A stretch of DNA of 64,000 nt from Alphaproteobacteria bacterium (GCA_965218865.1 CBDCME010000073.1:289158-353157), one strand, 5' to 3'; positions 5,524-41,765 are shown, counted from the stretch's first letter. Numbers and translations: made by a program. Notes: generated by a model not told the origin, from the sequence alone.

Positions 5524-5675
5524 CAGTCTGTTCGATAACTCGCGGCGCTGGCCCTCTCCCCCTCCCGGCCACCCCTATCAGCATACTCTCGTGGGTGGCC
5601 GGGAGGGGGAGAGGGCCGGGAGGGGGAGAGGGCCAGACGCAAAAAATGCGCGGCCGCGCATTTTCAAACAGACTG
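5524..5675. repeat. MITE/REP-like palindromic element, copy 1 (terminal inverted repeats CAGTCTGTTCGA...TCGAACAGACTG, internal G/C-rich palindrome)
   Basis: 152-bp nested palindrome in the convergent tas/hflC intergenic space. Two further copies at 40745..40882 and 41634..41765. Confidence 0.65.
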
Positions 5676-5699
5676 TGAGTTAGCGGAAACGGGTGGGCC

Positions 5700-6581
5700 C
5701 TACCGCCCCCCGGGACCCGGTTTGCTGTGATCGAAGTAACGGAAGAATTCGCTACTGGGCGAAAGTACCATCGTCGTGTCGTCGCTTGACAGCGCCTCAC
5801 GGTAGGCCTCCATGGAGCGATAGAAGGCAAAAAAGTCGATATCCTTGCCAAAGGCCTCGGCGAATATCCGCACCGCTTCGCCATCCCCTTCACCACGGGA
5901 AATCTGCGCTGTCTTGCGGGCCTCGGCGAGGAGGATGGTTTTCTCGCGATCCGCCCGGCTCCGGATCCGCTGGCCGACTTCCGCGCCCTGGGCCCGGAAT
6001 TCCTTGGCTTCGCGCTCGCGTTCGGTCTGCATGCGGCGGAAAACGGCCTGGCTGTTCTCCGCCGGCAGATCGGCCCGTTTCATGCGCACGTCGACGACGT
6101 TGATGCCTAAGGGCTCGGCCTCCTCGTTTACGCTAACGCGGATGGTGACCATGATGTCGGCGCGCTCGCCGGAAACAACCGAGCTGAGCGGCACCGACCC
6201 CAATGTCCGCCGAATGGCCGCATTGACGAGGTTGCCGAGGCGGCCTCGCGCCACGGCCTCGGTGCCCACTGATTGATAGAATAGCAGGGGATCCGCGATC
6301 CGATAGAGGGCAAATGCGTCGACCACGAGCCGTTTCTGATCCGAGAGGATCATCTCTTCGGCGGGAGCATCGAACTCCAGCAACCGATTGTCGAAGTAGC
6401 GAACGTCCTGGATGAAAGGAATTTTTAAGTTCAGTCCGGGATCTTGAATCACCTTACGGGGTTCACCGAATTGAAGTACCAGGGCCTGTCGCGCCTGATG
6501 CACGGTGAATAGCGAGCTGGCGGCGACAACAGCAGTTACTGCCGCGACGATGGCGAGGATCACGAGTGCCGGGTGTTTCAT
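5700..6581 (-). CDS. hflC: protease modulator HflC
   Basis: 293 aa. N-terminal TM plus SPFH/band-7 domain. Directly downstream of hflK. Confidence 0.9.
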   Translation of the reverse strand: MKHPALVILAIVAAVTAVVAASSLFTVHQARQALVLQFGEPRKVIQDPGLNLKIPFIQDVRYFDNRLLEFDAPAEEMILSDQKRLVVDAFALYRIADPLLFYQSVGTEAVARGRLGNLVNAAIRRTLGSVPLSSVVSGERADIMVTIRVSVNEEAEPLGINVVDVRMKRADLPAENSQAVFRRMQTEREREAKEFRAQGAEVGQRIRSRADREKTILLAEARKTAQISRGEGDGEAVRIFAEAFGKDIDFFAFYRSMEAYREALSSDDTTMVLSPSSEFFRYFDHSKPGPGGR

Positions 6582-6582
6582 C

Positions 6583-7701
6583 CTAGGGAGATCCTCCGCT
6601 CGACTTGCGTTTGTTCAACTCGGGCAGCGGCAGATAGGGGAGAACCCCCTGGGTGCCGGTACCCTCGCTGTCGATGATGATCTTGGTCATGCCCTTGAGG
6701 ATTTTTTCCATGGTTTCGAGATAGATACGCCTGACCGTCACGTCCTTGGCCACCTTGTACGAGTTGTACACCGAGATGAACCGCTGGGCGTCACCCTCGG
6801 CCCGGGCGACGACCTCCTGTTTGTACCCTTCCGCCTCCTGAAGCAGCTGTTCGGCCTCGCCGCGGGCCCGGGGGATGATGTCGTTCCGATAGGCCTCGGC
6901 CTCGTTACGGAGACGCTCGAGGTCGGCGCGGGCGGCTTGGACGTCGCGGAAAGCATCGATCACCGCCTCGGGGGGATCCACTTTCTGCAATTGGACCTGG
7001 GTCACTTGGATTCCCGCCTCGTATCCGTCGAGCACCTGCTGCAACAATTCGCGGGTTTGGGTTTCGACGGCGCTCCGGCCCTCGGCCAAGGCGGAAGCGA
7101 TCTCGGTCTTTCCGATCACCTCGCGCATGGCGGCTTCCCCCGCGTCCTTGACCGTGCGCTCGGGCTCGCGCAGTTTGAACAAGAACTTTCCGGCGTCTTT
7201 GATCACCCAAAAGACGACAAAGTTGATGTCGACAATGTTTTCATCGCCGGTCAGCATCAGACTTTCGCCTTGAACCTGGCGGGAGGTCCCCTCGCGGATC
7301 CCGCTGCCACTCGACCGGAACCCGAGTTCCACCCGGTTAACCTTGGTCACCTTGGGTGTGTAGACCTGACCGATCGGGGAAGGGGGATTGTATCGCAGAC
7401 CGGGTTCGGTGGTCGCCATCCAACGGCCGAAGATGAGTTCGACCCCTTGCTCGTCGGGTTGCACGCGGTAGAACCCGCTTGCCAACCAGATCGCGACGAC
7501 GATACCGATAATGATTAAAAGGCCGCGAAACCCGCCCGTGCCACCGGGTAAAAAACGTTTGATACGTTCCTGCCCCTTGCGCAGCAAGTCCTCCAGATCC
7601 GGTGCTTGGGGACCGCCCGGGCCACGGCCCCAGGGACCCTGGCCGCCACCGCCCTGCCAGCCACCGCCGCCGTTACCACCCCCTTGACTACTCCACGGCA
7701 C
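6583..7701 (-). CDS. hflK: protease modulator HflK
   Basis: SPFH domain protein with a Gly-rich N-terminus (PWSSQGGGNGGGGWQGGGG). Start placed at the GTG (V of RVPWSS), 7 nt after a perfect AAGGAG Shine-Dalgarno. The ORF-track start at 7728 lacks an RBS. Confidence 0.85.
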   Translation of the reverse strand: MPWSSQGGGNGGGGWQGGGGQGPWGRGPGGPQAPDLEDLLRKGQERIKRFLPGGTGGFRGLLIIIGIVVAIWLASGFYRVQPDEQGVELIFGRWMATTEPGLRYNPPSPIGQVYTPKVTKVNRVELGFRSSGSGIREGTSRQVQGESLMLTGDENIVDINFVVFWVIKDAGKFLFKLREPERTVKDAGEAAMREVIGKTEIASALAEGRSAVETQTRELLQQVLDGYEAGIQVTQVQLQKVDPPEAVIDAFRDVQAARADLERLRNEAEAYRNDIIPRARGEAEQLLQEAEGYKQEVVARAEGDAQRFISVYNSYKVAKDVTVRRIYLETMEKILKGMTKIIIDSEGTGTQGVLPYLPLPELNKRKSSGGSP

Positions 7702-7882
7702 TCGAAGACTCCTTCGTCGCGATGTCACGAACGGGATTGGTTACCCTTTCTCCTAGCCTTATATGTCAGCTATCATCGTTACGCAATGAGTTGTGGTCGA
7801 ATACAAGGGTCAGCGGCCGGAAACGGACGTACCGGCTGGTGATCCGGAGCACGATTGATCCGCCACTGAAGGAGCCATCGCC

Positions 7883-8995
7883 ATGAGCGAGGTCACCGAG
7901 GAACAGATCTGGCAAGCCCTCAAGGGCGTTGCCGACGACGGTCAAGACGTCGTCAGCGAGGGCCTGGTTTCGGGCTTGATCGTCAAGAACGGCAACGTCG
8001 GCTTCGCGATCGAGGTCGATCCGAGCGAGGGCGCGGCCAAGGAACCCCTGCGCCAGGCATGCGAAAAAGCGGTCGAGGCCCTGCCAGGTGTTCTATCCGT
8101 GACCGTCGTCCTCACGGCCCACCGCGACGCCGCCCAGCGCGCGCCCGACCCTTCCCGGGGTCCGGCCGCCGCCGAGGACACGAGGACGGCCATTCCGGGG
8201 ATCGCTTCGATCGTCGCCGTCGCTTCGGGAAAGGGTGGAGTCGGAAAATCCACCATGGCCGTTAATCTAGCGCTGGCGCTGGCCGTCGGCGGACGCCGCG
8301 TCGGCATCCTCGATGCCGATATCTACGGACCCTCGATGCCCCGCATGCTTGGCATCCAAGGTCGCCCCAAGGCGATCGACGGGAAACGTCTGGAACCGAT
8401 GCGAAATCACGGCTTGGCCTGCATGTCGATGGGTTTCCTGGTAGACGAAGACACGCCGATGATCTGGCGCGGACCCATGGTGATGCAAGCCTTGGAGCAA
8501 ATGCTGCGCGAGGTCGAATGGGGCAACCTCGATCTGCTGGTCGTCGACATGCCGCCGGGCACCGGTGACGCCCAACTGACGATGGCGCAGCGCGTCCCCC
8601 TGACCGGCGCGATCATCGTTTCGACCCCCCAGGACATCGCCCTGATCGATGCCCGTAAGGGCCTCGCCATGTTCCAACGCGTGAACGTGCCCGTATTCGG
8701 AATCGTCGAAAACATGAGCTATTATCAATGCCCGCAATGCGGCCACCGGGCCGAGATCTTCGGCCACGGGGGGGCCCGGAAAACCGCCGACGATCTGGGC
8801 ATGGATTTTCTCGGCGAGGTCGCCCTGGACATCCGCATCCGCGAGACCTCGGACTCGGGCCAGCCCGTCGTCGCCACCGACCCGGAGAGCGCCCACGCCG
8901 CGGCCTTTCGAAAGATCGCGGACAAGGTCGCGGACAAGATCGATGCCGCGACTGGCGCCGAGGCGCCCAAGGCGCCCAAGATCGTCATCCAATGA
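7883..8995 (+). CDS. apbC: Fe-S cluster carrier ATPase Mrp/ApbC
   Basis: 370 aa. N-terminal DUF59-like domain plus the Mrp/NBP35 P-loop GKGGVGKST and a CxxC motif (YYQCPQCGH). Confidence 0.9.
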   Translation: MSEVTEEQIWQALKGVADDGQDVVSEGLVSGLIVKNGNVGFAIEVDPSEGAAKEPLRQACEKAVEALPGVLSVTVVLTAHRDAAQRAPDPSRGPAAAEDTRTAIPGIASIVAVASGKGGVGKSTMAVNLALALAVGGRRVGILDADIYGPSMPRMLGIQGRPKAIDGKRLEPMRNHGLACMSMGFLVDEDTPMIWRGPMVMQALEQMLREVEWGNLDLLVVDMPPGTGDAQLTMAQRVPLTGAIIVSTPQDIALIDARKGLAMFQRVNVPVFGIVENMSYYQCPQCGHRAEIFGHGGARKTADDLGMDFLGEVALDIRIRETSDSGQPVVATDPESAHAAAFRKIADKVADKIDAATGAEAPKAPKIVIQ

Positions 8996-9048
8996 AGCGA
9001 ACAGCACCCCCACCGCTTCGCCAGCCATCGATACGGAGTGAATGACCC

Positions 9049-9384
9049 ATGAACATCAAGACCCTCGCCCTGCCGTTGATTTTCGCCGCGCTTCTCGGAA
9101 CCGGCACCGCCACGGCGTATGAACAGCCCTGCAAGGCGAAGGGGGAACAGGGACTCGCGAGCCTGGGCCTCGGCAGCGACGACCTCAAGAGCGTTCAATG
9201 GGAGGAACGGATCGGGGCCGGATTCTCCGCGGACGGCGAGGGTTGGGTCACCGGCTATAATCTGTGGGCGAGACCGAAATCGTGTGAGCGAGGATACGTG
9301 GTCGTCGAAATGACCCGAAGCTGTTACATCCGCCAGATCTATTCCCGTGGCGGCTGCACCATTGCCGGCGCCCAACAATACTGA
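9049..9384 (+). CDS. hypothetical exported protein (signal peptide, 4 Cys)
   Basis: 111 aa. N-terminal signal peptide (ALPLIFAALLGTGTATAYE). No recognised domain. Confidence 0.4.
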   Translation: MNIKTLALPLIFAALLGTGTATAYEQPCKAKGEQGLASLGLGSDDLKSVQWEERIGAGFSADGEGWVTGYNLWARPKSCERGYVVVEMTRSCYIRQIYSRGGCTIAGAQQY

Positions 9385-9539
9385 GGTCCGCCATCCCGCC
9401 GGGACGCCGATCAGCATTAATTTGGGGACAGTATACCAATTTATCCGTCAGTCGCGGGTTTCATCCGACCGAAAAAAATCTAATGTCTCGGCATCACCTT
9501 ACGCCGTCGGGTTGGTTCCGGAATTGGAGCCGTATCCGG

Positions 9540-10662
9540 TTAATGGCTTCGCGTCACCGGACGACGTATTGCGGTCCGGTGCCTTGCCCGCGCGGCGCGG
9601 ACCTCCTCCAGGCGTTCCCAAGCGATCCGATTGGCCATCGCGTTCGTCGCCATGGCTTGCTCGTCGGCACGGCCGAATAAATTCAGCAGTCGGTCGTGGA
9701 GCCGAGCCACGTGGGCCAGGGCGACGACTGAATCGAAGTGCGCGCCACGGTACGCGATTTCATAGGAAACGTAGATCAGGCCGCCGGCGTTGATTACGTA
9801 ATCCGGAGCATAAAGGATTCCCCGCGCCAGCAAGGCGCCGCCATGGTGGGTTTCGGCCAGTTGATTATTGGCCGACCCGGCGACGATCGTTGCCTTGAGG
9901 CGCGGAACCGTGTCGTCGTTCAGGACAGCGCCCAAGGCGCAAGGCGCCAGGACGTCCGCCTCGACGTCGTAGATTTCTTCCGCCGCGACGGCCGTGGCGC
10001 CGTGGCGTTCTCGAACCGCGCGAACCGCGTCCGCGTCGATATCCGTAACGGTGAGCCGCGCCCCGTCCTTGGCGAGATGCTCGCACAGCTTGGCGCCGAC
10101 TTGGCCCAGTCCTTGTACCGCGATCACGATTCCGTCGAGTCTCTCGCGCCCGAGCCGGTTGCCTGATGGCGGCTCTGATGCCGTGATAGACCCCCCACGC
10201 CGTCGCCGGAGAAGGATCTCCGCCGCCCTCGCCGATACCCGCGACATGGGGCGTTTCCTGGCGGACGACATCCATGTCGGCGACACCCATGCCGACGTCC
10301 TCGGCGATGATGTAACGGCCCTGTAGGGAATCGACGAATCTGCCGAAGCGCCGGAGCAGGGCCTCGCTCTTGTCGCTTCGGGAATCACCGATAACGACCG
10401 ATTTGCCGCCACCAAGGTGGAGCCCCGCCATCGCGGCCTTGTAGGTCATACCGCGCGACAGCCTCAGAACATCGTCCAGGGCCTCCTCGTCGCTCCCATA
10501 CGGCCACATGCGGCAACCACCGAGCGCCGGCCCCAGGGTCGTATCGTGAATCGCGACGATGGCTTTCAGCCCGACCCGGGCATCGTGAAAAAACACGGCC
10601 TCGTCGTGGTGCGCGAAGCTCTTGGCGTAATAGACGACCATGGCGGGATACGGGGTAATCAC
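9540..10662 (-). pseudogene. Glu/Leu/Phe/Val dehydrogenase (leucine-dehydrogenase-like), single frameshift near 10155-10165
   Basis: The N-terminal half (frame of 9865..10662) carries the catalytic GGGK motif ([11 protein letters not shown]). The C-terminal Rossmann half ([13 protein letters not shown] ... PDYVINAGG) lies in the frame of 9540..10415. The junction falls after [11 protein letters not shown]. Confidence 0.7.
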
Positions 10663-10686
10663 GGCGGATGCGCACCGCCCCGCGGA

Positions 10687-13170
10687 GCAATGGCATTTCT
10701 TTAAGGATTCGGCGTCATTTCCTTAAGGAGGCGCTCCGTACCAGGCAGCTTGCGCCTCTTGGACCGCGTATCGCTGCGTCACGCCACCGTGCGCGCCCTC
10801 TGGGTCCACTTGCCGCGCGGCTTCATTGATCGCCGTGGATATGATCGCCCCGGCCGCAGCCTGCTGCGCACCGAGAGGATCCGCTCTGCCATCCAGTCAA
10901 GGATCACGGCCAGTGCCGCTGTCCGGGCGAGCATCAGTTCCTCCAGGCTCGCCGCCATGATCGCGAGCGCGTTGCTGAAGTTCGTCGTTTGCCGTTTTCT
11001 GCCCTCCTCGCAGAGATCTTCCAGCAGCCCGTCGCCGCGATTTGACAGCAGCCGCGTCATGGCGATCAGGTTGAAGTGGGCGTAGAGTTCCTGGCGAATG
11101 CCCCTCCCGGTCCGGCCATGAAACTCGTCCACCGCGATCATGGTCTTGGAAGTCTTGTAGAGTTCCTCAATGCCCCATCTCCCGTGATACAGGCTGGAGA
11201 GGTCGTCCCGGGTGTAGCGGTCCCGATCGACCAGCGTGGTGGCGAGGGTGTATTCATCTTGCCCCGCCTTGTACTTGACCAGCCGCAGTTCCACCGGGTC
11301 GAGAGGTTTCCCGGGAAACGCGGCACGGAGGTCACACAACGCGGTGTTCTTCGGGACGGCCCGGACGAGGGCGTCGTCCTGGCCGCCGTCGATGAAGCCG
11401 GTGAAGGCGGCCGCGCTGTTGCGCTTGAGCCGGAACACCGGGTGCAGGCCGCGCGAGACCATGGCGTGCAGAAGCACGAACGAGAAGTAGCCGCGGTCGA
11501 GGACCACGACATCGCCCGGCGACAGGGCATAGAGATGGGCGAGCGCTGCGGTCCGCTCGTCGGCATTGGCCGACAGGGAGAAGTCGACCGGCGTCTTCGT
11601 GTCGAGGCGGTACAGGCAGGACACCAGCCCCTGCGGATAGTGGGTGTTGGCGTTGGGGAGCGGGTAGCCGGCCTCGACCAGCGGGCGGGGCAGGTTCATC
11701 TTGGTTCCGTCGATGGCGAAGGTACGGTGGTCCTTCCATCGGCCGCCGTCTCCGCCGTGACGGAGGATTTCCCGGTGCAGGTCAAGGAACAGGTCCTCGT
11801 GCACCCGGGCCCGGGCCTTGCAGATCGACGAGGCGGCCACCGGCTGGCGCTGCGGCAGTGCGATCCCCAGCTTCCGGCACTGGTCCCACAACTCCGCGAT
11901 CACGGTGGCGTAGCCCTTGCCGCCCCTGGACAGGACCAAGCGGAACACGAAGAGCATGACGATCAGGCTGTTCAGGACCCGTCGCCGCCGCATCCACTTC
12001 CGATCATGCGCTGCGGCCAGCTCGCCGGCCGCATCGATGATCTTCATCCACATCGCGACGAACGGATCGTCACACACCGGGCGCGGGGGCTTCGGCCGCT
12101 TCGGCGGACGGCTTTCGCCCTTCAGAACCGTGCGGAAGTCGGGATCGAGGGGCATGACGAGGATCTCCTTCGGCGGCTTGGTCCGGCTTCCGCCCCGATG
12201 ACCGGCCGTCATGCCGACCTTCTCCCAGTTGGCGGCCCGGTAACTTGCGCCGTCGTGGCGCGTCGGATCTACGAAGGTCTCGCAGAGAACCGGCCGGCAC
12301 CCGTGCCGCTGCTGCCACACGTCCGCAAGCCGGCGCACCGCCATCGCAAGGGCCCGGGAGGCGAGATTGTCAACCCGGACCCAAGGCAGGATCAGGAAGC
12401 GGCTGTTCGAGACCGCAAGATGCGGCCGCCGGTCGCGGTCCGCCCCGGTCCATCCGACCCACGCATCGCGAGCGGGCAGCGTCCTCGCCGCCGCCTCGAA
12501 AAGCAGGCAGCCGAGGCGGCGCCCTTCGCGGTCGAGAACGAACCAGCGCAGGTGCGGTCCGAACGGACGGGGACAGCCGAGCCAGTGGTGCCGGTCAACC
12601 AGTTCGTTCCACTCGGCGACCTCCGCCGGCTCCGTCGCCAAGTGCAGCGACAGCGGCTCCAGCCCGGCCAGGCCGCAGGCGATCTCCGGATCCGGCTCAG
12701 ACCGTTCGGTGTGCTCGATTGCCCGGCGCGGCCCCGATGCAGTGTTCCGCTTCGCCGGCAGGGTCAGGATCCCGCTCTCCTCCAGGCTCTCCAGCATGCG
12801 CAGGCAGGCCGCCACCCGGTAGTCGCCTTTCGGTGTGGTCCATCTCAAGTGCTCGCAGATCGTCTTGGCCAGCTCGTTGCGGCTGAGAGCCGGGAACAGG
12901 GACACGGTCTCTTGAACATCGGCGATCTGCCGCCTCGTCAGGCGGCGGCCGAAGAACGTGGTCGATGCGAGGCTCTCGATTCCAGGATCCATCGCTGCGG
13001 CTCCACCGAGCGAAACGGAAAGGTTCGAGAGTGTCATGCCATGCGGATGGTGGCGTGTCAACCGTTGCTTTGCGCTTACGGCGAGAAAGGTTGAAGGAGC
13101 CTTGAATCAACGGCTTGGGGCGACCGTGAAAATCTGACGCCGGAACTGTCGGCCAACAAAATGCCATTGC
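10687..13170 (-). mobile_element. IS4-like insertion sequence, copy 1 (12-bp TIR GCAATGGCATTT, 8-bp flank CCCGCGGA)
   Basis: 2484 bp. Terminal inverted repeats GCAATGGCATTT / AAATGCCATTGC. CCCGCGGA occurs before copy 1, between the copies, and after copy 2. Confidence 0.8.
10779..13061 (-). CDS. transposase, N-terminal DUF4338 (DruA-like) domain fused to IS4-type DDE domain
   Basis: 760 aa. C-terminal DDE_Tnp_1 motifs (FAIDGT ... VVLDRGY ... YHGRWGIEELYKTSK). The N-terminal ~350 aa carry the motifs WVGW, NSRFLILPW, ETFVD, YRAANW, which are shared with the other two DUF4338 proteins in this window. Confidence 0.8.
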   Translation of the reverse strand: MTRHHPHGMTLSNLSVSLGGAAAMDPGIESLASTTFFGRRLTRRQIADVQETVSLFPALSRNELAKTICEHLRWTTPKGDYRVAACLRMLESLEESGILTLPAKRNTASGPRRAIEHTERSEPDPEIACGLAGLEPLSLHLATEPAEVAEWNELVDRHHWLGCPRPFGPHLRWFVLDREGRRLGCLLFEAAARTLPARDAWVGWTGADRDRRPHLAVSNSRFLILPWVRVDNLASRALAMAVRRLADVWQQRHGCRPVLCETFVDPTRHDGASYRAANWEKVGMTAGHRGGSRTKPPKEILVMPLDPDFRTVLKGESRPPKRPKPPRPVCDDPFVAMWMKIIDAAGELAAAHDRKWMRRRRVLNSLIVMLFVFRLVLSRGGKGYATVIAELWDQCRKLGIALPQRQPVAASSICKARARVHEDLFLDLHREILRHGGDGGRWKDHRTFAIDGTKMNLPRPLVEAGYPLPNANTHYPQGLVSCLYRLDTKTPVDFSLSANADERTAALAHLYALSPGDVVVLDRGYFSFVLLHAMVSRGLHPVFRLKRNSAAAFTGFIDGGQDDALVRAVPKNTALCDLRAAFPGKPLDPVELRLVKYKAGQDEYTLATTLVDRDRYTRDDLSSLYHGRWGIEELYKTSKTMIAVDEFHGRTGRGIRQELYAHFNLIAMTRLLSNRGDGLLEDLCEEGRKRQTTNFSNALAIMAASLEELMLARTAALAVILDWMAERILSVRSRLRPGRSYPRRSMKPRGKWTQRARTVA

Positions 13171-13178
13171 CCCGCGGA

Positions 13179-15662
13179 GCAATGGCATTTCTTTAAGGAT
13201 TCGGCGTCATTTCCTTAAGGAGGCGCTCCGTACCAGGCAGCTTGCGCCTCTTGGACCGCGTATCGCTGCGTCACGCCACCGTGCGCGCCCTCTGGGTCCA
13301 CTTGCCGCGCGGCTTCATTGATCGCCGTGGATATGATCGCCCCGGCCGCAGCCTGCTGCGCACCGAGAGGATCCGCTCTGCCATCCAGTCAAGGATCACG
13401 GCCAGTGCCGCTGTCCGGGCGAGCATCAGTTCCTCCAGGCTCGCCGCCATGATCGCGAGCGCGTTGCTGAAGTTCGTCGTTTGCCGTTTTCTGCCCTCCT
13501 CGCAGAGATCTTCCAGCAGCCCGTCGCCGCGATTTGACAGCAGCCGCGTCATGGCGATCAGGTTGAAGTGGGCGTAGAGTTCCTGGCGAATGCCCCTCCC
13601 GGTCCGGCCATGAAACTCGTCCACCGCGATCATGGTCTTGGAAGTCTTGTAGAGTTCCTCAATGCCCCATCTCCCGTGATACAGGCTGGAGAGGTCGTCC
13701 CGGGTGTAGCGGTCCCGATCGACCAGCGTGGTGGCGAGGGTGTATTCATCTTGCCCCGCCTTGTACTTGACCAGCCGCAGTTCCACCGGGTCGAGAGGTT
13801 TCCCGGGAAACGCGGCACGGAGGTCACACAACGCGGTGTTCTTCGGGACGGCCCGGACGAGGGCGTCGTCCTGGCCGCCGTCGATGAAGCCGGTGAAGGC
13901 GGCCGCGCTGTTGCGCTTGAGCCGGAACACCGGGTGCAGGCCGCGCGAGACCATGGCGTGCAGAAGCACGAACGAGAAGTAGCCGCGGTCGAGGACCACG
14001 ACATCGCCCGGCGACAGGGCATAGAGATGGGCGAGCGCTGCGGTCCGCTCGTCGGCATTGGCCGACAGGGAGAAGTCGACCGGCGTCTTCGTGTCGAGGC
14101 GGTACAGGCAGGACACCAGCCCCTGCGGATAGTGGGTGTTGGCGTTGGGGAGCGGGTAGCCGGCCTCGACCAGCGGGCGGGGCAGGTTCATCTTGGTTCC
14201 GTCGATGGCGAAGGTACGGTGGTCCTTCCATCGGCCGCCGTCTCCGCCGTGACGGAGGATTTCCCGGTGCAGGTCAAGGAACAGGTCCTCGTGCACCCGG
14301 GCCCGGGCCTTGCAGATCGACGAGGCGGCCACCGGCTGGCGCTGCGGCAGTGCGATCCCCAGCTTCCGGCACTGGTCCCACAACTCCGCGATCACGGTGG
14401 CGTAGCCCTTGCCGCCCCTGGACAGGACCAAGCGGAACACGAAGAGCATGACGATCAGGCTGTTCAGGACCCGTCGCCGCCGCATCCACTTCCGATCATG
14501 CGCTGCGGCCAGCTCGCCGGCCGCATCGATGATCTTCATCCACATCGCGATGAACGGATCGTCACACACCGGGCGCGGGGGCTTCGGCCGCTTCGGCGGA
14601 CGGCTTTCGCCCTTCAGAACCGTGCGGAAGTCGGGATCGAGGGGCATGACGAGGATCTCCTTCGGCGGCTTGGTCCGGCTTCCGCCCCGATGACCGGCCG
14701 TCATGCCGACCTTCTCCCAGTTGGCGGCCCGGTAACTTGCGCCGTCGTGGCGCGTCGGATCTACGAAGGTCTCGCAGAGAACCGGCCGGCACCCGTGCCG
14801 CTGCTGCCACACGTCCGCAAGCCGGCGCACCGCCATCGCAAGGGCCCGGGAGGCGAGATTGTCAACCCGGACCCAAGGCAGGATCAGGAAGCGGCTGTTC
14901 GAGACCGCAAGATGCGGCCGCCGGTCGCGGTCCGCCCCGGTCCATCCGACCCACGCATCGCGAGCGGGCAGCGTCCTCGCCGCCGCCTCGAAAAGCAGGC
15001 AGCCGAGGCGGCGCCCTTCGCGGTCGAGAACGAACCAGCGCAGGTGCGGTCCGAACGGACGGGGACAGCCGAGCCAGTGGTGCCGGTCAACCAGTTCGTT
15101 CCACTCGGCGACCTCCGCCGGCTCCGTCGCCAAGTGCAGCGACAGCGGCTCCAGCCCGGCCAGGCCGCAGGCGATCTCCGGATCCGGCTCAGACCGTTCG
15201 GTGTGCTCGATTGCCCGGCGCGGCCCCGATGCAGTGTTCCGCTTCGCCGGCAGGGTCAGGATCCCGCTCTCCTCCAGGCTCTCCAGCATGCGCAGGCAGG
15301 CCGCCACCCGGTAGTCGCCTTTCGGTGTGGTCCATCTCAAGTGCTCGCAGATCGTCTTGGCCAGCTCGTTGCGGCTGAGAGCCGGGAACAGGGACACGGT
15401 CTCTTGAACATCGGCGATCTGCCGCCTCGTCAGGCGGCGGCCGAAGAACGTGGTCGATGCGAGGCTCTCGATTCCAGGATCCATCGCTGCGGCTCCACCG
15501 AGCGAAACGGAAAGGTTCGAGAGTGTCATGCCATGCGGATGGTGGCGTGTCAACCGTTGCTTTGCGCTTACGGCGAGAAAGGTTGAAGGAGCCTTGAATC
15601 AACGGCTTGGGGCGACCGTGAAAATCTGACGCCGGAACTGTCGGCCAACAAAATGCCATTGC
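13179..15662 (-). mobile_element. IS4-like insertion sequence, copy 2 (tandem direct repeat of copy 1)
   Basis: Period 2492 bp (IS plus 8-bp flank). Identical to copy 1 except single-nucleotide differences (V/I in the transposase; T/M in a spurious ORF). Confidence 0.8.
13271..15553 (-). CDS. transposase, DUF4338-IS4 DDE fusion (copy 2)
   Basis: Identical to the 10779..13061 product except one V->I substitution. Confidence 0.8.
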   Translation of the reverse strand: MTRHHPHGMTLSNLSVSLGGAAAMDPGIESLASTTFFGRRLTRRQIADVQETVSLFPALSRNELAKTICEHLRWTTPKGDYRVAACLRMLESLEESGILTLPAKRNTASGPRRAIEHTERSEPDPEIACGLAGLEPLSLHLATEPAEVAEWNELVDRHHWLGCPRPFGPHLRWFVLDREGRRLGCLLFEAAARTLPARDAWVGWTGADRDRRPHLAVSNSRFLILPWVRVDNLASRALAMAVRRLADVWQQRHGCRPVLCETFVDPTRHDGASYRAANWEKVGMTAGHRGGSRTKPPKEILVMPLDPDFRTVLKGESRPPKRPKPPRPVCDDPFIAMWMKIIDAAGELAAAHDRKWMRRRRVLNSLIVMLFVFRLVLSRGGKGYATVIAELWDQCRKLGIALPQRQPVAASSICKARARVHEDLFLDLHREILRHGGDGGRWKDHRTFAIDGTKMNLPRPLVEAGYPLPNANTHYPQGLVSCLYRLDTKTPVDFSLSANADERTAALAHLYALSPGDVVVLDRGYFSFVLLHAMVSRGLHPVFRLKRNSAAAFTGFIDGGQDDALVRAVPKNTALCDLRAAFPGKPLDPVELRLVKYKAGQDEYTLATTLVDRDRYTRDDLSSLYHGRWGIEELYKTSKTMIAVDEFHGRTGRGIRQELYAHFNLIAMTRLLSNRGDGLLEDLCEEGRKRQTTNFSNALAIMAASLEELMLARTAALAVILDWMAERILSVRSRLRPGRSYPRRSMKPRGKWTQRARTVA

Positions 15663-15784
15663 CCCGCGGAGTGGTCGGCATTCGCAACGGCCGTCGAAAT
15701 TGCGCGCGCCAGCATGGCCAATACTTGCCGAGAATCGAAAAAGGGACGCGGCCCGTGTCCCCCTTAGTTTCCGATCACGGACGT

Positions 15785-34510: not shown

Positions 34511-34511
34511 C

Positions 34512-35750
34512 GCACCGCCGACGATCGCCTGCAGTCGATCACGTAATACCAATCGCCCTTAACATTGCCTTGTGCGAGCCCACGCTCTGAGGCCGATGGA
34601 CATGATCTTCCAAGGTTGGTCGGTCAGGTTGTTCCAGGCTTGGCAAGAGGCCTCGACGATGGCTTCATAGGAGTCGAAGACACGATTGGAGAGCCAGTTC
34701 TGGCGGAGGTATTGCCAGACATTTTCGGCGGGATTGAGCTCCGGGGACTTGGGTGGCAAAGGCACGAGGGAGATGTTCTCCGGGATGCCGAGTTTGGCAG
34801 TGGTGTGCCATGCGGCTTGGTCGAGCAGCACGACGGCATGGGCGTTTGGGGCAACGGCCCGGCTGATTTCCTCGAGATGCAGGTCCATGGCTTCAGTATT
34901 GGCGCGCGGCATGACCAGCGCCGCGCCCTCACCGCGCTCGGGGCAGATGGCGCCGAAGAGATACGCCGAAGAGGTCCGTAGGTCCTTGACCTGGCGCGGG
35001 CGCGATCCCTTTGGGGCCCACTGGCGCACCAGGCTGTTCTTCTGGCCGACGCGCATTTCATCTTGAAACCAAACCTCGATGGGCGTGTCCGGTGGCTGTG
35101 CCGCTACGATTTTCGCCAAGTGTTCGGGAAAACTTTTTTTTAAATTCCTCCTGTGCCCGCGCATCCTGGCCGACGTGGCGCGGGCGCGCGGAAATATGCG
35201 AGAACCCGAGCGCGGCCAGCAGCTTGCCGACGCTCCGCTCGTGATAGTCCACGCCGAAGCGCGTTCGGATCAGTTGCTTGAGATCGATGCAGCGCCAGCG
35301 CACGACCCCATCCCGTTCGGGATCGGGACAGGCCTCGATAGCCCGCGAAAGCGCCGCCATTTGCGACGGCGTCAACCGACGCAACGCCCCGTTCGGCTTG
35401 CGGTCGATCAGACCGGCCGGACCTCCCGCGTTGAACCGGTGAACCCAGTCCCGCAACGTCTGCCGATCCATGCCGCCAATACCCGCCGCGCACGCTCGAT
35501 CCATCCCATCGTAGATGGCCGCCATCGACAAAAGCCGTCGCGCCTGGTTCCCATCATCGCTCCGTGCCGCAAGAACACGGACTCTTTCAGCATCAAAGTC
35601 GTTTCGCAAAGGAATCGTTGGCATTGAACACACTCCCTTGTTGCCAACAACCTTGAATCACACAAAACCTAGCGTGTAAACCTTTGCGCGAGTCAAACTC
35701 TGGGGCGGTTGGTATAATACCCTGCCAAGCATATCGTCGGCCGTGGGCCT
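34512..35750 (-). mobile_element. IS630-family insertion sequence (~48-bp imperfect TIRs)
   Basis: 34511-34558 is an imperfect inverted repeat of 35703-35750 (CAC(C/G)GCCGACGAT ... T(A)ATACCAA(T/C)CGCCC). The transposase is split into two frames at the A8G slippery run (35137-35145). Confidence 0.7.
34559..35633 (-). CDS. IS630-family transposase (HTH N-domain plus DDE_3 domain; requires -1 programmed frameshift at AAAAAAAAG)
   Basis: N-terminal ORF 35058..35633 (HTH, MDRQTLRDWVHRFNAGG). C-terminal ORF 34559..35164 (DDE_3: LLDQAAWH ... LPPKSPELNPAENVW). The two frames overlap at the poly-A run. Confidence 0.7.
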
Positions 35751-36438: not shown

Positions 36439-36460
36439 GCGGGCGCCCTAAGGCGCCCGC
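36439..36460 (-). terminator. rho-independent terminator downstream of amtB
   Basis: Perfect 9-bp stem GCGGGCGCC/GGCGCCCGC with a 4-nt loop. On the amtB strand it is followed by TTTCTC. Confidence 0.45.
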
Positions 36461-36483
36461 AATAACACTCGGACGAGCCGTGG

Positions 36484-37788
36484 TTAAATGTCGTAACCCC
36501 GTTCGCCGTGCAAAACAATGTCGAGACCTTCGGTTTCCTCGTCGGACGTCACCCGCAGGCCGATAAACAAATCGACCAACTTCAGAATGATGAAGGTAAG
36601 GACCCCACACCAGACGTAGGTCGCGATCACACCGATGAACTGGAGGCCGATCTGCTTTCCCATTCCCGGTTCGCCCGCTTGGGCACCGTTCCATAAGAAA
36701 ACGAAGACGCCGGTGAGGATGGCGCCGACGGTTCCGCCGACACCGTGGACGGCGAAAACATCGAGAGAGTCGTCGATCTCCAGGGTGTTCTTGACGAAAT
36801 TCACGCAGAAGAAACATATGACCCCGGCAATACCGCAAAGGACCATGGCACCGACCTGGCCGACAAATCCGGACGCGGGCGTAATCGCGACCAGACCGAC
36901 AACGGCGCCGGTGATGACTCCGAGGAGGCTGGGCCTGCCGCGCTTGATCCACTCGGCGACCATCCACCCGAGAGCCGCGGACGCGGTCCCGATCTGGGTC
37001 ACCATCATGGCCATGCCCGCACCGGTATCGGCGGCGAGCTGGCTGCCGGCGTTGAAGCCGAACCAGCCGACCCACAGCATGCAAACGCCGATCATGGCCA
37101 TCGTCAGGTTATGCGGCGCCATGGGAGCCTCCGGGAATCCCTTGCGCTTACCCATGACCAAGGCGCAAACCAACGCCGCGACGCCCGAATTGATGTGAAC
37201 GACGGTGCCGCCGGCGAAGTCCAGAACACCCAAATCGCTAAGCCAGCCACCACCCCACACCCAATGGCAAATGGGGGAATAAACGAAAGTTGACCAAAGA
37301 ACCATGAACCAGATCATGGCGGACAATTTCATCCGCTCGGCAAAGGCACCGATGATCAGGACCGGGGTAATGATAGCGAAGGTCAACTGGAACATCGAAA
37401 ACACGCTTTCCGGAATAGTTCCGGAAACAGCGTCGCGGGCCATATCTTTATGGAAGAATTGACTCAATCCGCCGACCCACTGATTCAACGCTCCTCCGTC
37501 GGTGAAGGCGAGGCTGTAGCCCCATCCCAACCACACGATGGTGATCACACAGGTGATCGTGAACCCCTGCATAAGGACGGAAAGGACGTTCTTGCTGCGC
37601 ACAAGGCCACCATAAAACAGACTTAGTCCTGGAATGGTCATGAACAACACAAGGGCCATGGACGTCAGCATCCAGGCCGTATCACCGGAATTAGTTGTAG
37701 GTCCCTCGTGAGCGGCTGCCATGGCCAATGACGGAAGCATTGCCACGAACAGGCTCAATAACGCAATCTTAACACTTCGGATTCTCAT
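36484..37788 (-). CDS. amtB: ammonium transporter
   Basis: Signal peptide plus 11 TM segments. Amt signature (AWMLTSMALVLFMTIPGLSLFYGG). Start at MRIRSVKIALL. Confidence 0.9.
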   Translation of the reverse strand: MRIRSVKIALLSLFVAMLPSLAMAAAHEGPTTNSGDTAWMLTSMALVLFMTIPGLSLFYGGLVRSKNVLSVLMQGFTITCVITIVWLGWGYSLAFTDGGALNQWVGGLSQFFHKDMARDAVSGTIPESVFSMFQLTFAIITPVLIIGAFAERMKLSAMIWFMVLWSTFVYSPICHWVWGGGWLSDLGVLDFAGGTVVHINSGVAALVCALVMGKRKGFPEAPMAPHNLTMAMIGVCMLWVGWFGFNAGSQLAADTGAGMAMMVTQIGTASAALGWMVAEWIKRGRPSLLGVITGAVVGLVAITPASGFVGQVGAMVLCGIAGVICFFCVNFVKNTLEIDDSLDVFAVHGVGGTVGAILTGVFVFLWNGAQAGEPGMGKQIGLQFIGVIATYVWCGVLTFIILKLVDLFIGLRVTSDEETEGLDIVLHGERGYDI

Positions 37789-38304
37789 CTGGCTTCTCCC
37801 CTGGCAAGGATCAGAAATATACGGGACGCTTTGTGCAAGTGGGGACACGGCCAACCTCGGCCAGGCGGAAGACCCAAGTTCATGCCGATTCCAAATTTCC
37901 CCGTCTGAGCGGCATTACTATGCATTTTGAAGGGTCGTTGCAATAAGGCAAATGGTCTCATACCGTCCACCTCGATTATCACTCCTCCCTGGTCTCCACA
38001 GGCACATCCCGTTACGCATCGCCCACGAAACTTCCGCGCCTCCGCCACGAGCCTTCGTGCCCCCGACGTTTTCGAAATGCGGATCGGCGATATTGCAAAG
38101 CCTACTCGCTTAGTGGCTTTGAAGAAAGTAAGAAACGAATGGTGTTCCCCAAAATCTCCCCGGACTAGACCTCGCTGTAATCTATTATCAGCACGAACAC
38201 ACGCAGGGGTCAACCTTTGTGTGCTTGCGTCGAATTGTCGATTGTTCGCTCCACCCCAACGCGGACAATACGGCAAACTTGGTAAAGCGACAAGCTTTCC
38301 GACA

Positions 38305-40385
38305 CAGGGCTAGTTTTTTGTCCGCCCAGTGATCAGGGTGAGGTGATCGCGGCGCTGGCCATTTCATTCTCGGTGTGGCAGTGTGCCGGTCATGGCGACG
38401 CTGCCGGTCTCGGATTCGTCCATTGATTTGCGCGCGGTCACGGTGCGTCCGACCTGGGGCGCGCAGGAGCACCGGCGCTGGGACCGGTTGGTGGAGCAGC
38501 ACCACTACCTGGCGTTCCACGGCGTCATCGGCAAGGGCCTGCGCCATGTCGCGGTGCATGGCGAGACCTGGCTCGCACTGATCGGCTGGCAGCCCGGCGC
38601 GTTCAAGCTGGGCGCGCGTGATCGCTGGATCGGGTGGTCGGCCGAGCAGCAGTTCCGGCGTCTGCATCTGATCGCCAACAACTCGCGCTTCGTCATTCTG
38701 ACGCCTGGCCGAGTGCCGAACCTGGCCTCCCGTGTGCTGGGGCTGAGCCTGCGGCGGCTGTCTGAGGACATCCAGGCGGTGCACGGATATCCGGCTCTTC
38801 TGGCGGAGACGTTCGTGGACGTCTCGCGATTTGCCGGCACCTGCTACCGCGCGTCGAACTGGCGCTCTCTGGGGCTGACGCGGGGCTTTGCCCGTGAGCC
38901 CGGAGGGGCAGCGCGCTGGCGCCACCACGGTCAGCCCAAGGAGGTCTTCGTGTTCGGACTGACAGACGGCGCCCCCGAGGCGCTGAGCCGTACCGGGATG
39001 CCGGCACACTGGAACGCCGAGCAGCACACCGAGCCGATGGCCGCGCCCCGGCTGCGCAGCCTGTTCGAGTGTCTGGGTGAGGTGCCCGAGTACCGCCATG
39101 CCCGGGGCAAGCGCTATGCGCTCAACACCATTCTGGTGATCGCCGTCGCCGCCCGGCTTGCCGGATACCGGGGGGTGAACGCGTTCGCCCAGTTCGCCGC
39201 CCTGCTCTCCCAGGAGCAGCTCGAGGCGGTGGGTGCGTTCTGGAGCCCTTCCAAACAGCGCTACACCCCGCCCGCGATCACCACCTTCCACAAGACCCTC
39301 ACCGCCCTGCCGCCAGAGACCCTGGACAACGCGATTAGCCAGTGGACCGGCCAGCATGGCAGCGCGCACGCGCCGGTCGCCATGGACGGAAAGGATCTGC
39401 GCGGCGCCTCGAAGCAGACCGAAGACGGGCGCAGGATGATGGTGGCGGCGGTCGAGCACGACACCGGCGTGGTCCTCGGGCAGGTCGAGGTCGACCGCAA
39501 GAGCAACGAAATCCCGGCCGTGCGCGAACTCTCCAGCGGCCTCGACCTCACAGGCCGGATCGTCACCATGGACGCGATGCACGCTCAGCACGAGACCGCG
39601 CGCTGCCTGCTCGGGCGTCGCGCCGACTACGTGATGAGCGCGGTCAAGGACAACCAGGAGATGATCTTCGAAGACCTCAAGGCGATCGACTTCAGCGATG
39701 CGCTCTGGCACGAAACCGTCGACAAGGGCCATGGCCGCATCGAGCGCCGACGCTGCGCCGTCGTCGACCTCTCCGCTGCCGAGTGGGACGGCTACGCCAA
39801 CCTCCACGGGCGACGCCAGGCCATGCGCATCGAGCGCGAACGCGAGATCCTCAAGACCGGCAAGCGCAGCATCGAGGTGACCTGGAGCCTCACCTCGCTC
39901 GGCGCAGAGCGCGCCGGACCCGAGGAGTTGCTCGAACTGGTGCGCAACCACTGGCATATCGAGAACCGCCTGCACTACGTGCGCGACTTCACCTACGACG
40001 AAGACCGATGCCGGGCCTACGTGCGTCACCTGCCCAGAAATCTCGCCTGCTTGACCAACGCGGCCATCGCCATCGTGCGCTGCGACGGACGCTTCCGTTA
40101 TCTGCCCGAGGCCAACCGGCACTATGCCGCCCGGGCGCAGGAGGCCCTCGACGCGATCATGACCGCGCCCATCGCCTGAGACAGCACGCCTCTCCCCCGG
40201 ACCGGGACGTGCCGCCGAGCGGCGCGGGCGGACCGGTGTGCCTGTCGAATCCGAAAACGCCGTCCGGTGGCTTCGAGCAGTCCCCATGACGTCGTCGAGG
40301 CAAGCTCGGGGCTCCCCGAACCCCGTGCACCGAGCACGATCCCACTCATCCCGAACCCTCAACCGCGACTAAAAATTGTTCCTGC
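38305..40385 (+). mobile_element. ISAs1-like insertion sequence, copy A (9-bp TSD TTTCCGACA)
   Basis: 2081 bp from CAGGGCTAGTTTTTTGTCC to GGAACAATTTTTAGTCGCG. TTTCCGACA is found immediately on both flanks. Confidence 0.75.
38383..40179 (+). CDS. transposase, N-terminal DUF4338 (DruA-like) domain fused to ISAs1-family DDE transposase
   Basis: 598 aa. N-terminal WIGW, NNSRFVILTP, ETFVD, YRASNW motifs. C-terminal ISAs1 hallmarks (RGKRYALNTILVIAVAA ... NHWHIENRLHYVRDFTYDED). Confidence 0.8.
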   Translation: MPVMATLPVSDSSIDLRAVTVRPTWGAQEHRRWDRLVEQHHYLAFHGVIGKGLRHVAVHGETWLALIGWQPGAFKLGARDRWIGWSAEQQFRRLHLIANNSRFVILTPGRVPNLASRVLGLSLRRLSEDIQAVHGYPALLAETFVDVSRFAGTCYRASNWRSLGLTRGFAREPGGAARWRHHGQPKEVFVFGLTDGAPEALSRTGMPAHWNAEQHTEPMAAPRLRSLFECLGEVPEYRHARGKRYALNTILVIAVAARLAGYRGVNAFAQFAALLSQEQLEAVGAFWSPSKQRYTPPAITTFHKTLTALPPETLDNAISQWTGQHGSAHAPVAMDGKDLRGASKQTEDGRRMMVAAVEHDTGVVLGQVEVDRKSNEIPAVRELSSGLDLTGRIVTMDAMHAQHETARCLLGRRADYVMSAVKDNQEMIFEDLKAIDFSDALWHETVDKGHGRIERRRCAVVDLSAAEWDGYANLHGRRQAMRIEREREILKTGKRSIEVTWSLTSLGAERAGPEELLELVRNHWHIENRLHYVRDFTYDEDRCRAYVRHLPRNLACLTNAAIAIVRCDGRFRYLPEANRHYAARAQEALDAIMTAPIA

Positions 40386-40744
40386 TTTCCGACAATCGGC
40401 TAATGGTCGGCGACACGTTCCGACGTTCGCGTTCCATCACGGCTCGGACGTTCGACGCTCACGGAAACGGCGTGGCAGAGGTCGGAATCCGCAGCCGCGA
40501 CCGGGCCGTCGCACCTGGGGCACCGGGGGGTTCGCGCCCGTCGAGGAGCCGCGGCCGAGGGCCCCGTGATACGCGGTGCCACAGGCCCCCGCGCGGACAC
40601 ACGGCCCCGAACCCCGCCCACACAGGCCAAAACCACTGCCCATTTCGGCCTAAGATGGATACCCGAACGGTTATCCTTCCATCCAACCGCCGGAATCGGT
40701 TACCCTCCGCACCAATCGGCGACGATCTGAGGTAAATCGGCTTT

Positions 40745-40882
40745 CAGTCTGTTCGAAAACTCGCGGCCCTGGCCCTCTCCCCCTCCCGGCCACCCCTATC
40801 AGCATACTCTCGTGGGTGGCCGGGAGGGGGAGAGGGCCGGAACAGACGCAAAATATGCGCGGACGCGCATTTTCGAACAGAC
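40745..40882. repeat. MITE/REP-like palindromic element, copy 2
   Basis: Same CAGTCTGTTCGAAAA terminal repeats and GGCCACCC.../...GGGTGGCC core as copy 1. Confidence 0.65.
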
Positions 40883-40911
40883 ATTTAGGGCGCGATCACA
40901 GGGATCCGATC

Positions 40912-41631
40912 ATGAAGCACCTCACCATTGCCCTTGCATGCTTTTTAGCTGCGACATCGGTCCGGGCCGAGGAATCCGTGCCGAGTGACGAGCAAGACAT
41001 CCGCAGCACTTACGGCGTCGCCCAGGAGATCGACCGCCTCGTCGTCCTCCTGGCGGACGATGTTCTCAGGGACATCGTATGCCGCGTCGCTTTTCAAACC
41101 TTCACGCCACGCACACTGGGCTCTGCTCTGCACCAACCCACGAAGGAGATCATGCGTCGAATCGAAATTTTGCGCGGGTGGGGATTGGTGCGCCTGACCA
41201 GTCGAGATGCCCTCACCAACGTCGTCGAACCCACCGCCGGCAACGGGGACGAGACGCTTCGGCGTTGGGCGGATAGGTATTGCCCTATGGGCGACAAGTG
41301 CGCGGAACCAATATCCAGCCAGGAAGCTAAGACGAGTGCGCAATCACAAAAACTCGTTAGACTCACCGCCAGCGACATCAGCATAAAACTTTCCGAAATT
41401 CCTGGATGGGAGTACAAAGATGGAGCGTTGTATCGCATGTTTACATTTGACAACTTTGTTCAGACTTTTGGATTTGTTACCAAGGTAGCCATTACCGCGG
41501 AAAAGCAAAATCATCATCCCGATATGGACACGGGATATAATAAAGTCGGAATTCACCTGTCCACACATGACGTCGACGGTATCAGCGAGCGGGACTTCAA
41601 ACTTGCTTCAGCAATTTCAGATTTGATGTAG
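40912..41631 (+). CDS. exported protein with C-terminal pterin-4a-carbinolamine dehydratase (PCD/DCoH) domain
   Basis: Signal peptide MKHLTIALACFLAATSVRA. C-terminal ~95 aa match PCD (EIPGWEYKDGALYRMFTFDNF ... QNHHPDMDTGYNKVGIHLSTHD). The 3' half is markedly AT-rich relative to the window. Confidence 0.6.
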   Translation: MKHLTIALACFLAATSVRAEESVPSDEQDIRSTYGVAQEIDRLVVLLADDVLRDIVCRVAFQTFTPRTLGSALHQPTKEIMRRIEILRGWGLVRLTSRDALTNVVEPTAGNGDETLRRWADRYCPMGDKCAEPISSQEAKTSAQSQKLVRLTASDISIKLSEIPGWEYKDGALYRMFTFDNFVQTFGFVTKVAITAEKQNHHPDMDTGYNKVGIHLSTHDVDGISERDFKLASAISDLM

Positions 41632-41633
41632 AT

Positions 41634-41765
41634 GTCTGTTCGAAAATGCGCGTCCGCGCATTTTTTGCGTCCGTTCCGGCCCCCACCCGGCCACCCACGA
41701 GAGGTTGCTGATAGGGGTGGCCGGGAGGGGGCGGGGGCCGGCGCCGCGAGTTTTCGAACAGACTG
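41634..41765. repeat. MITE/REP-like palindromic element, copy 3 (inverted relative to copy 2)
   Basis: Begins 3 bp after the PCD-gene stop codon. Confidence 0.65.

Follow-up and report, generated by a model that had tools for sequence, protein, structure and literature searches.

Three copies of a small, non-coding palindromic MITE in an alphaproteobacterial genome segment, two of them at the ends of a pterin dehydratase gene

Results and Discussion

Three copies of one element in a 64-kb window

In a stretch of 64,000 nucleotides from an Alphaproteobacteria bacterium (GCA_965218865.1 CBDCME010000073.1:289158-353157), hereafter called the window, we analysed three copies of a small palindromic repeat, two of which lie in opposite orientation at either end of a gene encoding a protein with a pterin dehydratase domain. 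The three repeats are likely to be copies of a MITE (miniature inverted-repeat transposable element) that inserted at the triplet TNA with duplication of these 3 bp, most likely through mobilisation of the IS1031 type (insertion sequence, IS), with the pair around the gene having arisen by separate insertions. A preliminary description, made from the sequence of the window, had presented the repeats as MITE/REP elements, two of which bracket a foreign gene in an arrangement resembling a MITE-mobilised or MITE-recombined cassette; the MITE label is right, while the gene-capture story is unsupported. The copies, their terminal inverted repeats (TIRs) and their hairpins are located as follows.

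5524-5675, plus strand: MITE copy 1, 152 bp, with TIRs at 5524-5538 and 5661-5675
5550-5574 and 5593-5617: arms of the long hairpin of copy 1
5601-5617 and 5618-5634: 17-nt tandem duplication GGGAGGGGGAGAGGGCC in copy 1
5646-5661: small hairpin ATGCGCGGCCGCGCAT of copy 1
5521-5523 (left) and 5676-5678 (right): target duplication TGA of copy 1
40745-40884, plus strand: MITE copy 2, 140 bp, with TIRs at 40745-40759 (CAGTCTG...) and 40870-40884 (...CAGACAT)
40771-40795 and 40814-40838: arms of the long hairpin of copy 2; its small hairpin lies at 40855-40870
41632-41765, minus strand: MITE copy 3, 134 bp, inverted with respect to copy 2
41632-41646 (ATGTCTG...) and 41751-41765: inner and outer TIRs of copy 3
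41646-41661: small hairpin of copy 3; the arms of its long hairpin, at about 41676-41696 and 41715-41741, are mutated

When the three copies were aligned, with copy 3 reverse-complemented, identity covered the whole element, end to end, but none of the flanks, which bore out the earlier statement that all three share TIRs and a G/C-rich palindrome and that copies 2 and 3 are opposed. The 15-mer CAGTCTGTTCGAAAA has 8 matches in the window at up to 3 mismatches against 1.09 expected, a number that 0 of 100 shuffles reached, and six of the eight are element ends. The 25-mer of the hairpin arm finds 6 matches where 0.00 are expected, and an nhmmer search with a profile built from 15 family members returned these three copies and no others in the 64 kb. 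A chance origin is excluded, and three related copies do lie at about the positions that had been given for them.

Each window copy is bounded by 15-nt TIRs; inside these come a long G+C-rich hairpin and, at one of its sides but not the other, a small hairpin of the form AAAA-ATGCGCG-GNC-CGCGCAT-TTTT. The long hairpin has perfect 25-nt arms in copies 1 and 2, closed by an asymmetric loop of 18 nt; in copy 3 an arm is shortened and mutated, and each TIR of copy 1 contains one mismatch. In the pair formed by copies 2 and 3 the outer ends are perfect CAGTCTGTTCGAAAA repeats, and the ends that face the gene read ATGTCTGTTCGAAAA, the ATGTCTG variant, not CAGTCTG. The open reading frames (ORFs) that cross the copies are spurious read-throughs only. 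The elements are non-coding and, at 134-152 bp, stay below the limit of about 300 bp for a bacterial MITE.

The family alignment showed that each element runs 2 nt beyond GTCTG/CAGAC, and the distances given earlier change with it: copy 2 is indeed upstream of the gene, with 27 nt instead of 29 between its end and the ATG at 40912, and copy 3 is indeed downstream, lying directly after the TAG stop (41629-41631) instead of 3 bp beyond it. Copy 2 is flanked by TTT (40742-40744) and TTA, copy 3 by TAG and TTA (41766-41768), and a DUF2165 gene follows at 41872-42357. Copy 1 sits between convergent neighbours, an aldo-keto reductase (AKR) gene at 4468-5505 (plus strand) and an hflC-like gene at 5700-6581 (minus strand). 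The outer flanks of copies 2 and 3 (40725-40744 and 41766-41785) contain a short inverted motif, G(G/C)TAAAT, at 6-12 nt from the elements, probably by chance.

A family with constant ends and exchangeable interiors

More than 25 further copies were found outside the window, in genomes, metagenomes and plasmid or secondary-replicon records. A scan of one genome per species for both TIRs separated by any 95-125 nt turned up 15 loci from six genera or phylum-level groups; the hosts are Sphingomonas, Novosphingobium, Acetobacteraceae, Phyllobacterium, Terriglobia, Nostoc and an unclassified alphaproteobacterium. The metagenome scan, which used one hairpin arm and one TIR, gave 9 loci with 11 copies, and four copies occur on two contigs of metagenome Ga0308159. 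Three plasmid or secondary-replicon records of Sphingomonas and Novosphingobium also carry the element.

The consensus of a 15-element alignment reads TNA, GAGTCTGTTTGAAAA, hairpins, TTTTCAAACAGACTC, TNA, the interior being made of a small A4-stem-T4 hairpin, a long G+C-rich hairpin with a loop near ATTCAGGATACGCTGT, and a second small hairpin. The long stem measures 25-34 bp and its asymmetric loop about 16-18 nt, and two small hairpins are present in most relatives. Compared with this family, the window copies have lost the left small hairpin, of which the first half GAAAACTCGCG is kept, and have CAG at their tips; judged by these features they are a derived subfamily.

Throughout the family the element measures 130-155 bp and its TIRs 15 nt, in Alphaproteobacteria, Acidobacteria and Cyanobacteria alike. 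Behind the same ends the interiors can be unrelated: loci L003, L006, L010, L013 and L014 contain other hairpins, and loci L017 and L024 (also L013) have extra hairpin modules that make the interior a mosaic. Since the TIRs stay constant while the interior varies across three phyla, they have the look of an end bound by a transposase. A literature search for the TIR strings returned only unrelated primer sequences, and no publication with these TIRs was found.

Some features of individual family members are recorded here. Nostoc genomes from lichen and bryophyte symbionts (L002, L004, L005, L008, L011 and L016) carry a 140-bp A+T-rich element with the same TIRs (TTAGAGTCTGTTTGAAAAGT), at a locus that seems to be shared and has similar flanks; a single Nostoc plasmid record holds this version. 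In Alphaproteobacteria the site methylated by CcrM is GANTC. The consensus tips read GAGTC at both ends, and the window copies, which begin with CAGTC or ATGTC, lack GANTC. In the metagenome contig L020 two copies (1-118 and 1031-1152) point in the same direction by their ends and have loops that are reverse complements of each other, which suggests that the loop can flip relative to the arms.

Insertion at TNA and the search for a transposase

Among the 52 triplets that flank the elements, 37 are TNA, against a background of 3.75%. Perfect 3-bp direct repeats surround 6 of 26 elements, namely copy 1, L012, L015 and L025b (all TGA) and L010 and L024 (both TTA). For the site of copy 1 alone, a relative without the insertion could be found. 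The closest relative (72% identity in AKR) has the same order, purB - DUF2065 - AKR convergent with hflC - hflK, and its AKR-hflC spacer is 39 nt long and element-free; the spacer in the window, 194 nt, equals 39 + 152 + 3. The agreement in length may be partly luck, because the spacers are too diverged to align. Judged from gene order and spacer length, the orthologous site of copy 1 is empty in this relative. Contigs assembled from short reads of the same strain end within copies 1 and 3 (the Logan contig L041 starts inside copy 3), which is what repeated sequence would lead one to expect.

Such target use is known from the IS1031 group of the IS5 family, which prefers 5'-TNA-3' and makes exclusively a 3-bp direct repeat (PMC12016507); related elements of the IS5 family duplicate the 3-nt target TAA (PMC2516522). 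One member of the group, ISLrh, has a 17-bp terminal repeat, GAACCTGTCTAGTATCT (PMC12016507), and 8 of 12 positions agree between the consensus GAGTCTGTTTGA of our family and the repeat GAACCTGTCTAG of ISLrh, the window copies starting with CAG or ATG. The element would thus insert at 5'-TNA-3' and duplicate those 3 bp, and it would most likely be mobilised in trans by a DDE transposase of the IS1031 type encoded elsewhere.

A number of observations weigh against this reading. Perfect duplications surround no more than the 6 of 26 elements mentioned, and the flanks of copies 2 and 3, TTT/TTA and TAG/TTA, are not clean duplications. In those elements that have TNA on both sides, the middle base is not shared clearly more often than chance would give, and the two triplets are in some cases palindromic (TTA...TAA); part of the TNA signal could therefore belong to the TIR itself. 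IS1031-group ends read GAG in the ISfinder tables; GAG is also typical of the family consensus, and the window copies start with CAG or ATG instead. No autonomous IS with matching TIRs occurs among the five IS types of the window (ISAs1-, IS4-, IS66-, IS630- and IS5-like); the sole IS5-family transposase there (43180-44538), a DUF772 + DDE_Tnp_1 protein, belongs to an element whose ends are unrelated. A 30-nt TIR query against 72,556 plasmids retrieved only MITE copies and noise, with no parent IS, and the TIR pattern in viral contigs gave seven low-GC single matches with no partner end. The copy number of three is that of the 64-kb window. Two of the three copies lie 750 bp apart, for which a rough estimate under random placement gives a probability of about 0.08, and on this spacing copies 2 and 3 may be linked. 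A simple terminator scan is passed by a single small hairpin.

Hairpin folding and possible function

Folded as a single strand, whether DNA or RNA, the copies do far better than shuffled controls, with z-scores of -7 to -14; RNA folding had been named as a check in the preliminary description. Across 15 elements, 18 of 54 stem pairs show compensatory changes, a number not reached by any of 500 shuffles, slid controls giving 3-4. In the small hairpins 7 of 10 pairs have such changes; their stems change completely and the A4 and T4 stay. Covarying stems together with a partly conserved asymmetric loop could conceivably mark an element that the host has taken over as a portable terminator or a protein-binding site.

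It is conceivable, though we think it rather improbable, that the copies are by now mainly portable bidirectional terminators, or structures of mRNA 3' ends and leaders, a role compatible with an origin as MITEs. Such a function would explain why pairing is conserved, and why the loop is so in part (core CAGGATAC), and it agrees with the upkeep of the A4-stem-T4 form while the sequences of the small hairpins turn over, with the location of copies right after stop codons and between convergent genes, with one terminator-like prediction in copy 2, and with the precedent of SPRITE, a mobile repeat with terminator-like sequences (PMC10969869). Against it, the T-runs measure no more than 4, and of the three window copies two do not pass the simple terminator scan. 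Rfam contains no family that matches: there were no gathering-level matches in the window, and the permissive mode gave generic microRNA-hairpin matches far below threshold, which are noise. Moreover, the pairing of a palindrome can persist by processes at the DNA level without any function of the RNA.

The bracketed gene and the origin of the flanking pair

The gene between copies 2 and 3 is made of two parts that differ in composition.

40912-41631, plus strand: bracketed gene, 239 aa; context, not part of the mobile element
41305-41631, plus strand: A+T-rich 3' part of the gene, 327 bp, encoding a linker and the pterin dehydratase domain; GC 44.3%, G+C at third codon positions (GC3) 0.47

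Its product starts with a signal-peptide-like stretch, goes on with about 95 conserved residues that make up an uncharacterised module, and has a complete Pterin_4a domain at residues 150-237. The ATG at 40912 was taken as the true start, in preference to a GTG inside copy 2, because the homologues begin with similar signal-peptide-like sequences. The N-terminal module (40912-41304, residues 1-131) contains the invariant cysteines C57, C124 and C130 and the motif TLRRWA..YC, and matches no Pfam family. The same module occurs in the metagenomic proteins P0002-P0006, joined there to CinA, DCC1-like or pirin domains or to a C-terminal region without a Pfam match, and at the loci of its homologues in other organisms we saw no such elements nearby and no conserved neighbourhood. 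Database matches to the whole 239-aa protein were limited to the sequence itself.

The 5' 393 bp of the gene (40912-41304) have a GC content of 61% and a GC3 of 0.73, like the rest of the window. The 3' part, 41305-41631, falls in the 0.3 percentile of 327-nt windows; nothing else between copies 2 and 3 looks foreign by composition. The 3' half had been called A+T-rich, which is correct for 41305-41631, the remainder being like the window. The claim that the copies precisely bracket a foreign gene is not supported, as the break in composition lies inside the gene at about 41300 and not at copy 2; the foreign DNA is therefore the dehydratase domain only. An A+T-rich dehydratase domain is thus fused to an N-terminal module of native composition.

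The position of copy 3 directly on a stop codon has a simple explanation. Of 18 elements with defined neighbours, 9 abut a stop codon, a usual place for this family, where 8.5 would be expected for a random TNA site in the reconstructed empty spacers; in spacers this short and G+C-rich, many of the TNA triplets come from stop codons, so the observed number is as expected. A special mechanism targeting stop codons was considered and rejected on this agreement. An annotated example is the stop codon of a glycosyltransferase gene on an S. sanguinis plasmid. With TNA rare in G+C-rich spacers and often provided there by a stop codon, the copies that survive would tend to stand at gene ends, where the hairpins may act as terminators or as structures of RNA 3' ends. 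Copies 2 and 3 are best taken for two separate insertions at either end of a small gene, the first into its 5' leader and the second at its stop codon, within an accessory region rich in IS, and not for a unit that delivered the gene.

The cassette mobilised or recombined by MITEs, as it had been proposed, would be a composite transposon in which the transposase uses the outer ends of copies 2 and 3 to move the pterin dehydratase gene. We regard this as unlikely, even though a fair number of features are in its favour: the pair is inverted, with perfect CAGTCTGTTCGAAAA repeats at its outer ends and the ATGTCTG variant at its inner ends; a single base separates the outer flanks, TTT and TTA; the gene inside is in part foreign in composition; the surroundings are an accessory region rich in IS, where RepC, recombinase and relaxase genes are also found; and MITE pairs that act like composite transposons are documented (PMC6382973). 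A second bracketed gene also exists: in L020, an unrelated contig from a metagenome, copies lie 8 nt upstream of the start and right after the stop of a rarD-like transporter gene, so that other copies do flank a gene, as the preliminary description had thought worth looking for. Against the composite stand (i) the absence of an exact duplication around the pair (TTT at 40742-40744, TTA at 41766-41768), (ii) the restriction of foreign composition to the last 327 bp instead of the whole bracketed unit, (iii) the lack of a recorded second copy of the unit, the protein's only database match being itself, (iv) the occurrence of relatives of the N-terminal module in unrelated, element-free contexts, (v) the position at the stop codon, which TNA targeting explains, and (vi) the nature of the gene bracketed in L020, a housekeeping-type transporter gene of native composition. 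The wider proposition, that the inverted pair is a working mobile unit which captured or assembled the chimeric gene and that such pairs of an IS1031-like MITE carry single genes about in G+C-rich Alphaproteobacteria, L020 being another instance, is no more credible to us than the composite itself. A composite transposon formed by two 2081-bp IS copies of this region was rejected: each of them has its own 10-bp duplication and they are therefore independent insertions.

Other origins of the repeats

The preliminary description had also left room for repetitive extragenic palindromes (REPs). Under this alternative the elements would be palindromes like REPs or bacterial interspersed mosaic elements (BIMEs), spread by a RAYT (Y1) transposase or by recombination and kept for their hairpins. 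Such an origin would fit the G+C-rich, intergenic hairpins, often placed between convergent genes, the mosaic interiors with extra hairpin modules in L017, L024 and L013, and the strong covariation of the stems. We hold it to be very unlikely. REPs are palindromes of 20-40 nt that have neither terminal repeats nor duplications. The elements are 130-155 bp long with 15-nt TIRs that stay constant across Cyanobacteria, Acidobacteria and Alphaproteobacteria while the interiors change, they have TNA flanks and 3-bp duplications, no Y1_Tnp domain was found among the window ORFs scanned, and the feet of the hairpins, read directly from the sequence, lack the GTAG or CGTC head by which REP superfamilies are marked (PMC3733652). 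The MITE half of the earlier assignment is upheld by the TIRs shared across phyla, the TNA flanks, the 3-bp duplications, the empty site and the many copies; the REP half is not.

An inverted duplication of a segment larger than the element, as the source of copies 2 and 3 in place of transposition, is highly improbable: it could draw on the weak similarity G(G/C)TAAAT at 6-12 nt outside both copies, but alignable similarity ends at the element borders, and copies 2 and 3 are 92% alike while copy 2 and the distant copy 1 are 98% identical over 96 nt. The longer duplicated segment that the preliminary description had named as contrary evidence was thus not found, and copies 2 and 3 are discrete elements because their similarity stops at the element ends.

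Significance

The repeats belong to a non-coding transposon family whose TIRs are conserved from Alphaproteobacteria to Acidobacteria and Cyanobacteria while the hairpin interior is swapped. They also offer a simple reason why such elements come to lie exactly on stop codons in G+C-rich genomes, namely a TNA target, with stop codons among the few TNA sites that short spacers offer. For annotation, recognising the family helps to avoid spurious ORFs, such as a 271-aa frame that starts inside copy 2, explains breaks in short-read contigs and flags possible terminators. No new mechanism of gene capture is revealed; elements of this kind are already known, and the family is a further member.

Other features of the window

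The PurB protein of the window is 81% identical to its best match among all other sequences, and the source is, by sequence comparison, a deep-branching Rhodospirillales-like alphaproteobacterium. Over about 33900-64000 the window passes from the core chromosome into an accessory region that resembles a plasmid or an integrative and conjugative element. The core part contains greA, purB, hflKC, ruvB, tol-pal, ftsH, folP and glmM; the accessory part contains an IS630-like element (34546-35715), amtB, RepC (47213-48565), a serine recombinase (48695-50062), a Toprim protein and a MobA/VirD2 relaxase (59899-61134).

Several large IS copies were delimited. At 38305-40385 and 44802-46884 a 2081-bp IS occurs twice, in inverted orientation and with 2 bp as the sole difference; it encodes a 598-aa transposase with DruA/DUF4338, DDE_Tnp_1_assoc and DDE_Tnp_1 domains; their own 10-bp duplications are CTTTCCGACA and CCCCAACTTG, and in the right copy 2 extra bases (45674-45675) split the ORF. 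A head-to-tail dimer of a 3705-bp IS66-like element occupies 50214-57630, its identical units separated by 7 nt (CGCGCGT) and the whole flanked by an 8-bp direct repeat, GTTCATGG; both units code for an 889-aa IS66 transposase and have, in addition, a DruA domain in a 311-aa ORF of its own. A tandem IS4-like pair with a period of 2492 bp extends over 10664-15685 and encodes a 760-aa protein with DruA, Nterm_IS4 and DDE_Tnp_1 domains. Contig L039, which comes from an independent metagenome assembly of the same strain and is 99.97% identical in the flanks, has at 6947-9310 a single IS4-like copy in the opposite orientation and with many indels, so the tandem may be polymorphic or an effect of assembly. 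A DruA/DUF4338-like domain is thus present in three IS types, fused to the transposase in the IS4-like (10779-13061) and ISAs1-like (38383-40179) elements and as a separate ORF in the IS66-like element (50273-51208). The IS5-family element (43156-44723; DUF772 + DDE_Tnp_1) is bounded by 17-nt inverted repeats at 43156-43172 and 44707-44723 and overlaps the 5' end of a GDSL-like ORF (42402-43253), a gene that is probably truncated.

The most A+T-rich stretch of the window lies at 57850-58100, with a GC content of about 40%. It includes, at 57967-58026 and in the neighbourhood of the genes for the Toprim protein and the relaxase, a run of direct repeats, placed side by side, with the pattern CG.AA.G.AAAACATG.AAAAACATGATT, which may be iterons or a site related to an origin or to transfer.

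Comparison with known systems

The CIR repeats of Caulobacter and Brucella, as Chen and Shapiro reportedly described them in 2003, are intergenic, about 110 bp long, form long hairpins and contain GANTC sites. The present family shares with them the setting of alphaproteobacterial intergenic hairpin repeats, and its consensus has GAGTC at both tips. Identity with CIRs was rejected, because these are listed as without TIRs and with GANTC in the hairpin loop (PMC2229807), and the window copies lack GANTC. The Nezha MITE of Anabaena and Nostoc is similar in size (130-170 bp), and the TIRs of our family occur in Nostoc genomes. Identity was rejected here too, as the Nezha reference copy is flanked by a 10-bp direct repeat, CATTATCTAC (PMC6042816), against 3 bp in our family; it is the length of the duplication that sets the two apart. 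The TIRs of Nezha are shared with ISNpu3.

In Acinetobacter, 439-bp MITEs flank class 1 integrons and MITE-297 flanks a 76-kb mer region (PMC6382973), so that two copies of one MITE surround a cargo as they do here. Those pairs are identical and recur in several strains, whereas copies 2 and 3 are 92% alike, are not accompanied by a duplication, have no second occurrence known and enclose a cargo that is only partly foreign. SPRITE, RUP and BOX of Streptococcus pneumoniae and the Correia elements of Neisseria are, like the present family, small intergenic mobile repeats with stable hairpins (PMC10969869, PMC2229807), and SPRITE carries sequences resembling Rho-independent terminators (PMC10969869). 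Their sequences are unrelated to ours, and RUP and Correia use TA targets in the manner of IS630, not TNA.

The IS1031-group elements, such as IS1031 and ISLrh, come closest in behaviour: they insert at TNA, generate a 3-bp repeat and have short TIRs beginning GA.-CTGT, as the consensus of our family does; the window copies begin with CAG or ATG. The interior is different, since our elements contain nested G+C-rich hairpins and not the remnant of an IS. The motif ...CTGTTTG... in the TIRs of Tourist elements resembles the TIRs described here. Tourist-type MITEs, the eukaryotic elements of the PIF/Harbinger superfamily that is related to IS5, share with the family a 3-bp duplication, short TIRs, a small non-coding body and a location near genes (PMC2213677). 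The host domain and the transposases are different, and the two are likened by their features. The element thus resembles an IS1031-type MITE in its behaviour and the Tourist/PIF elements in its 3-bp target.

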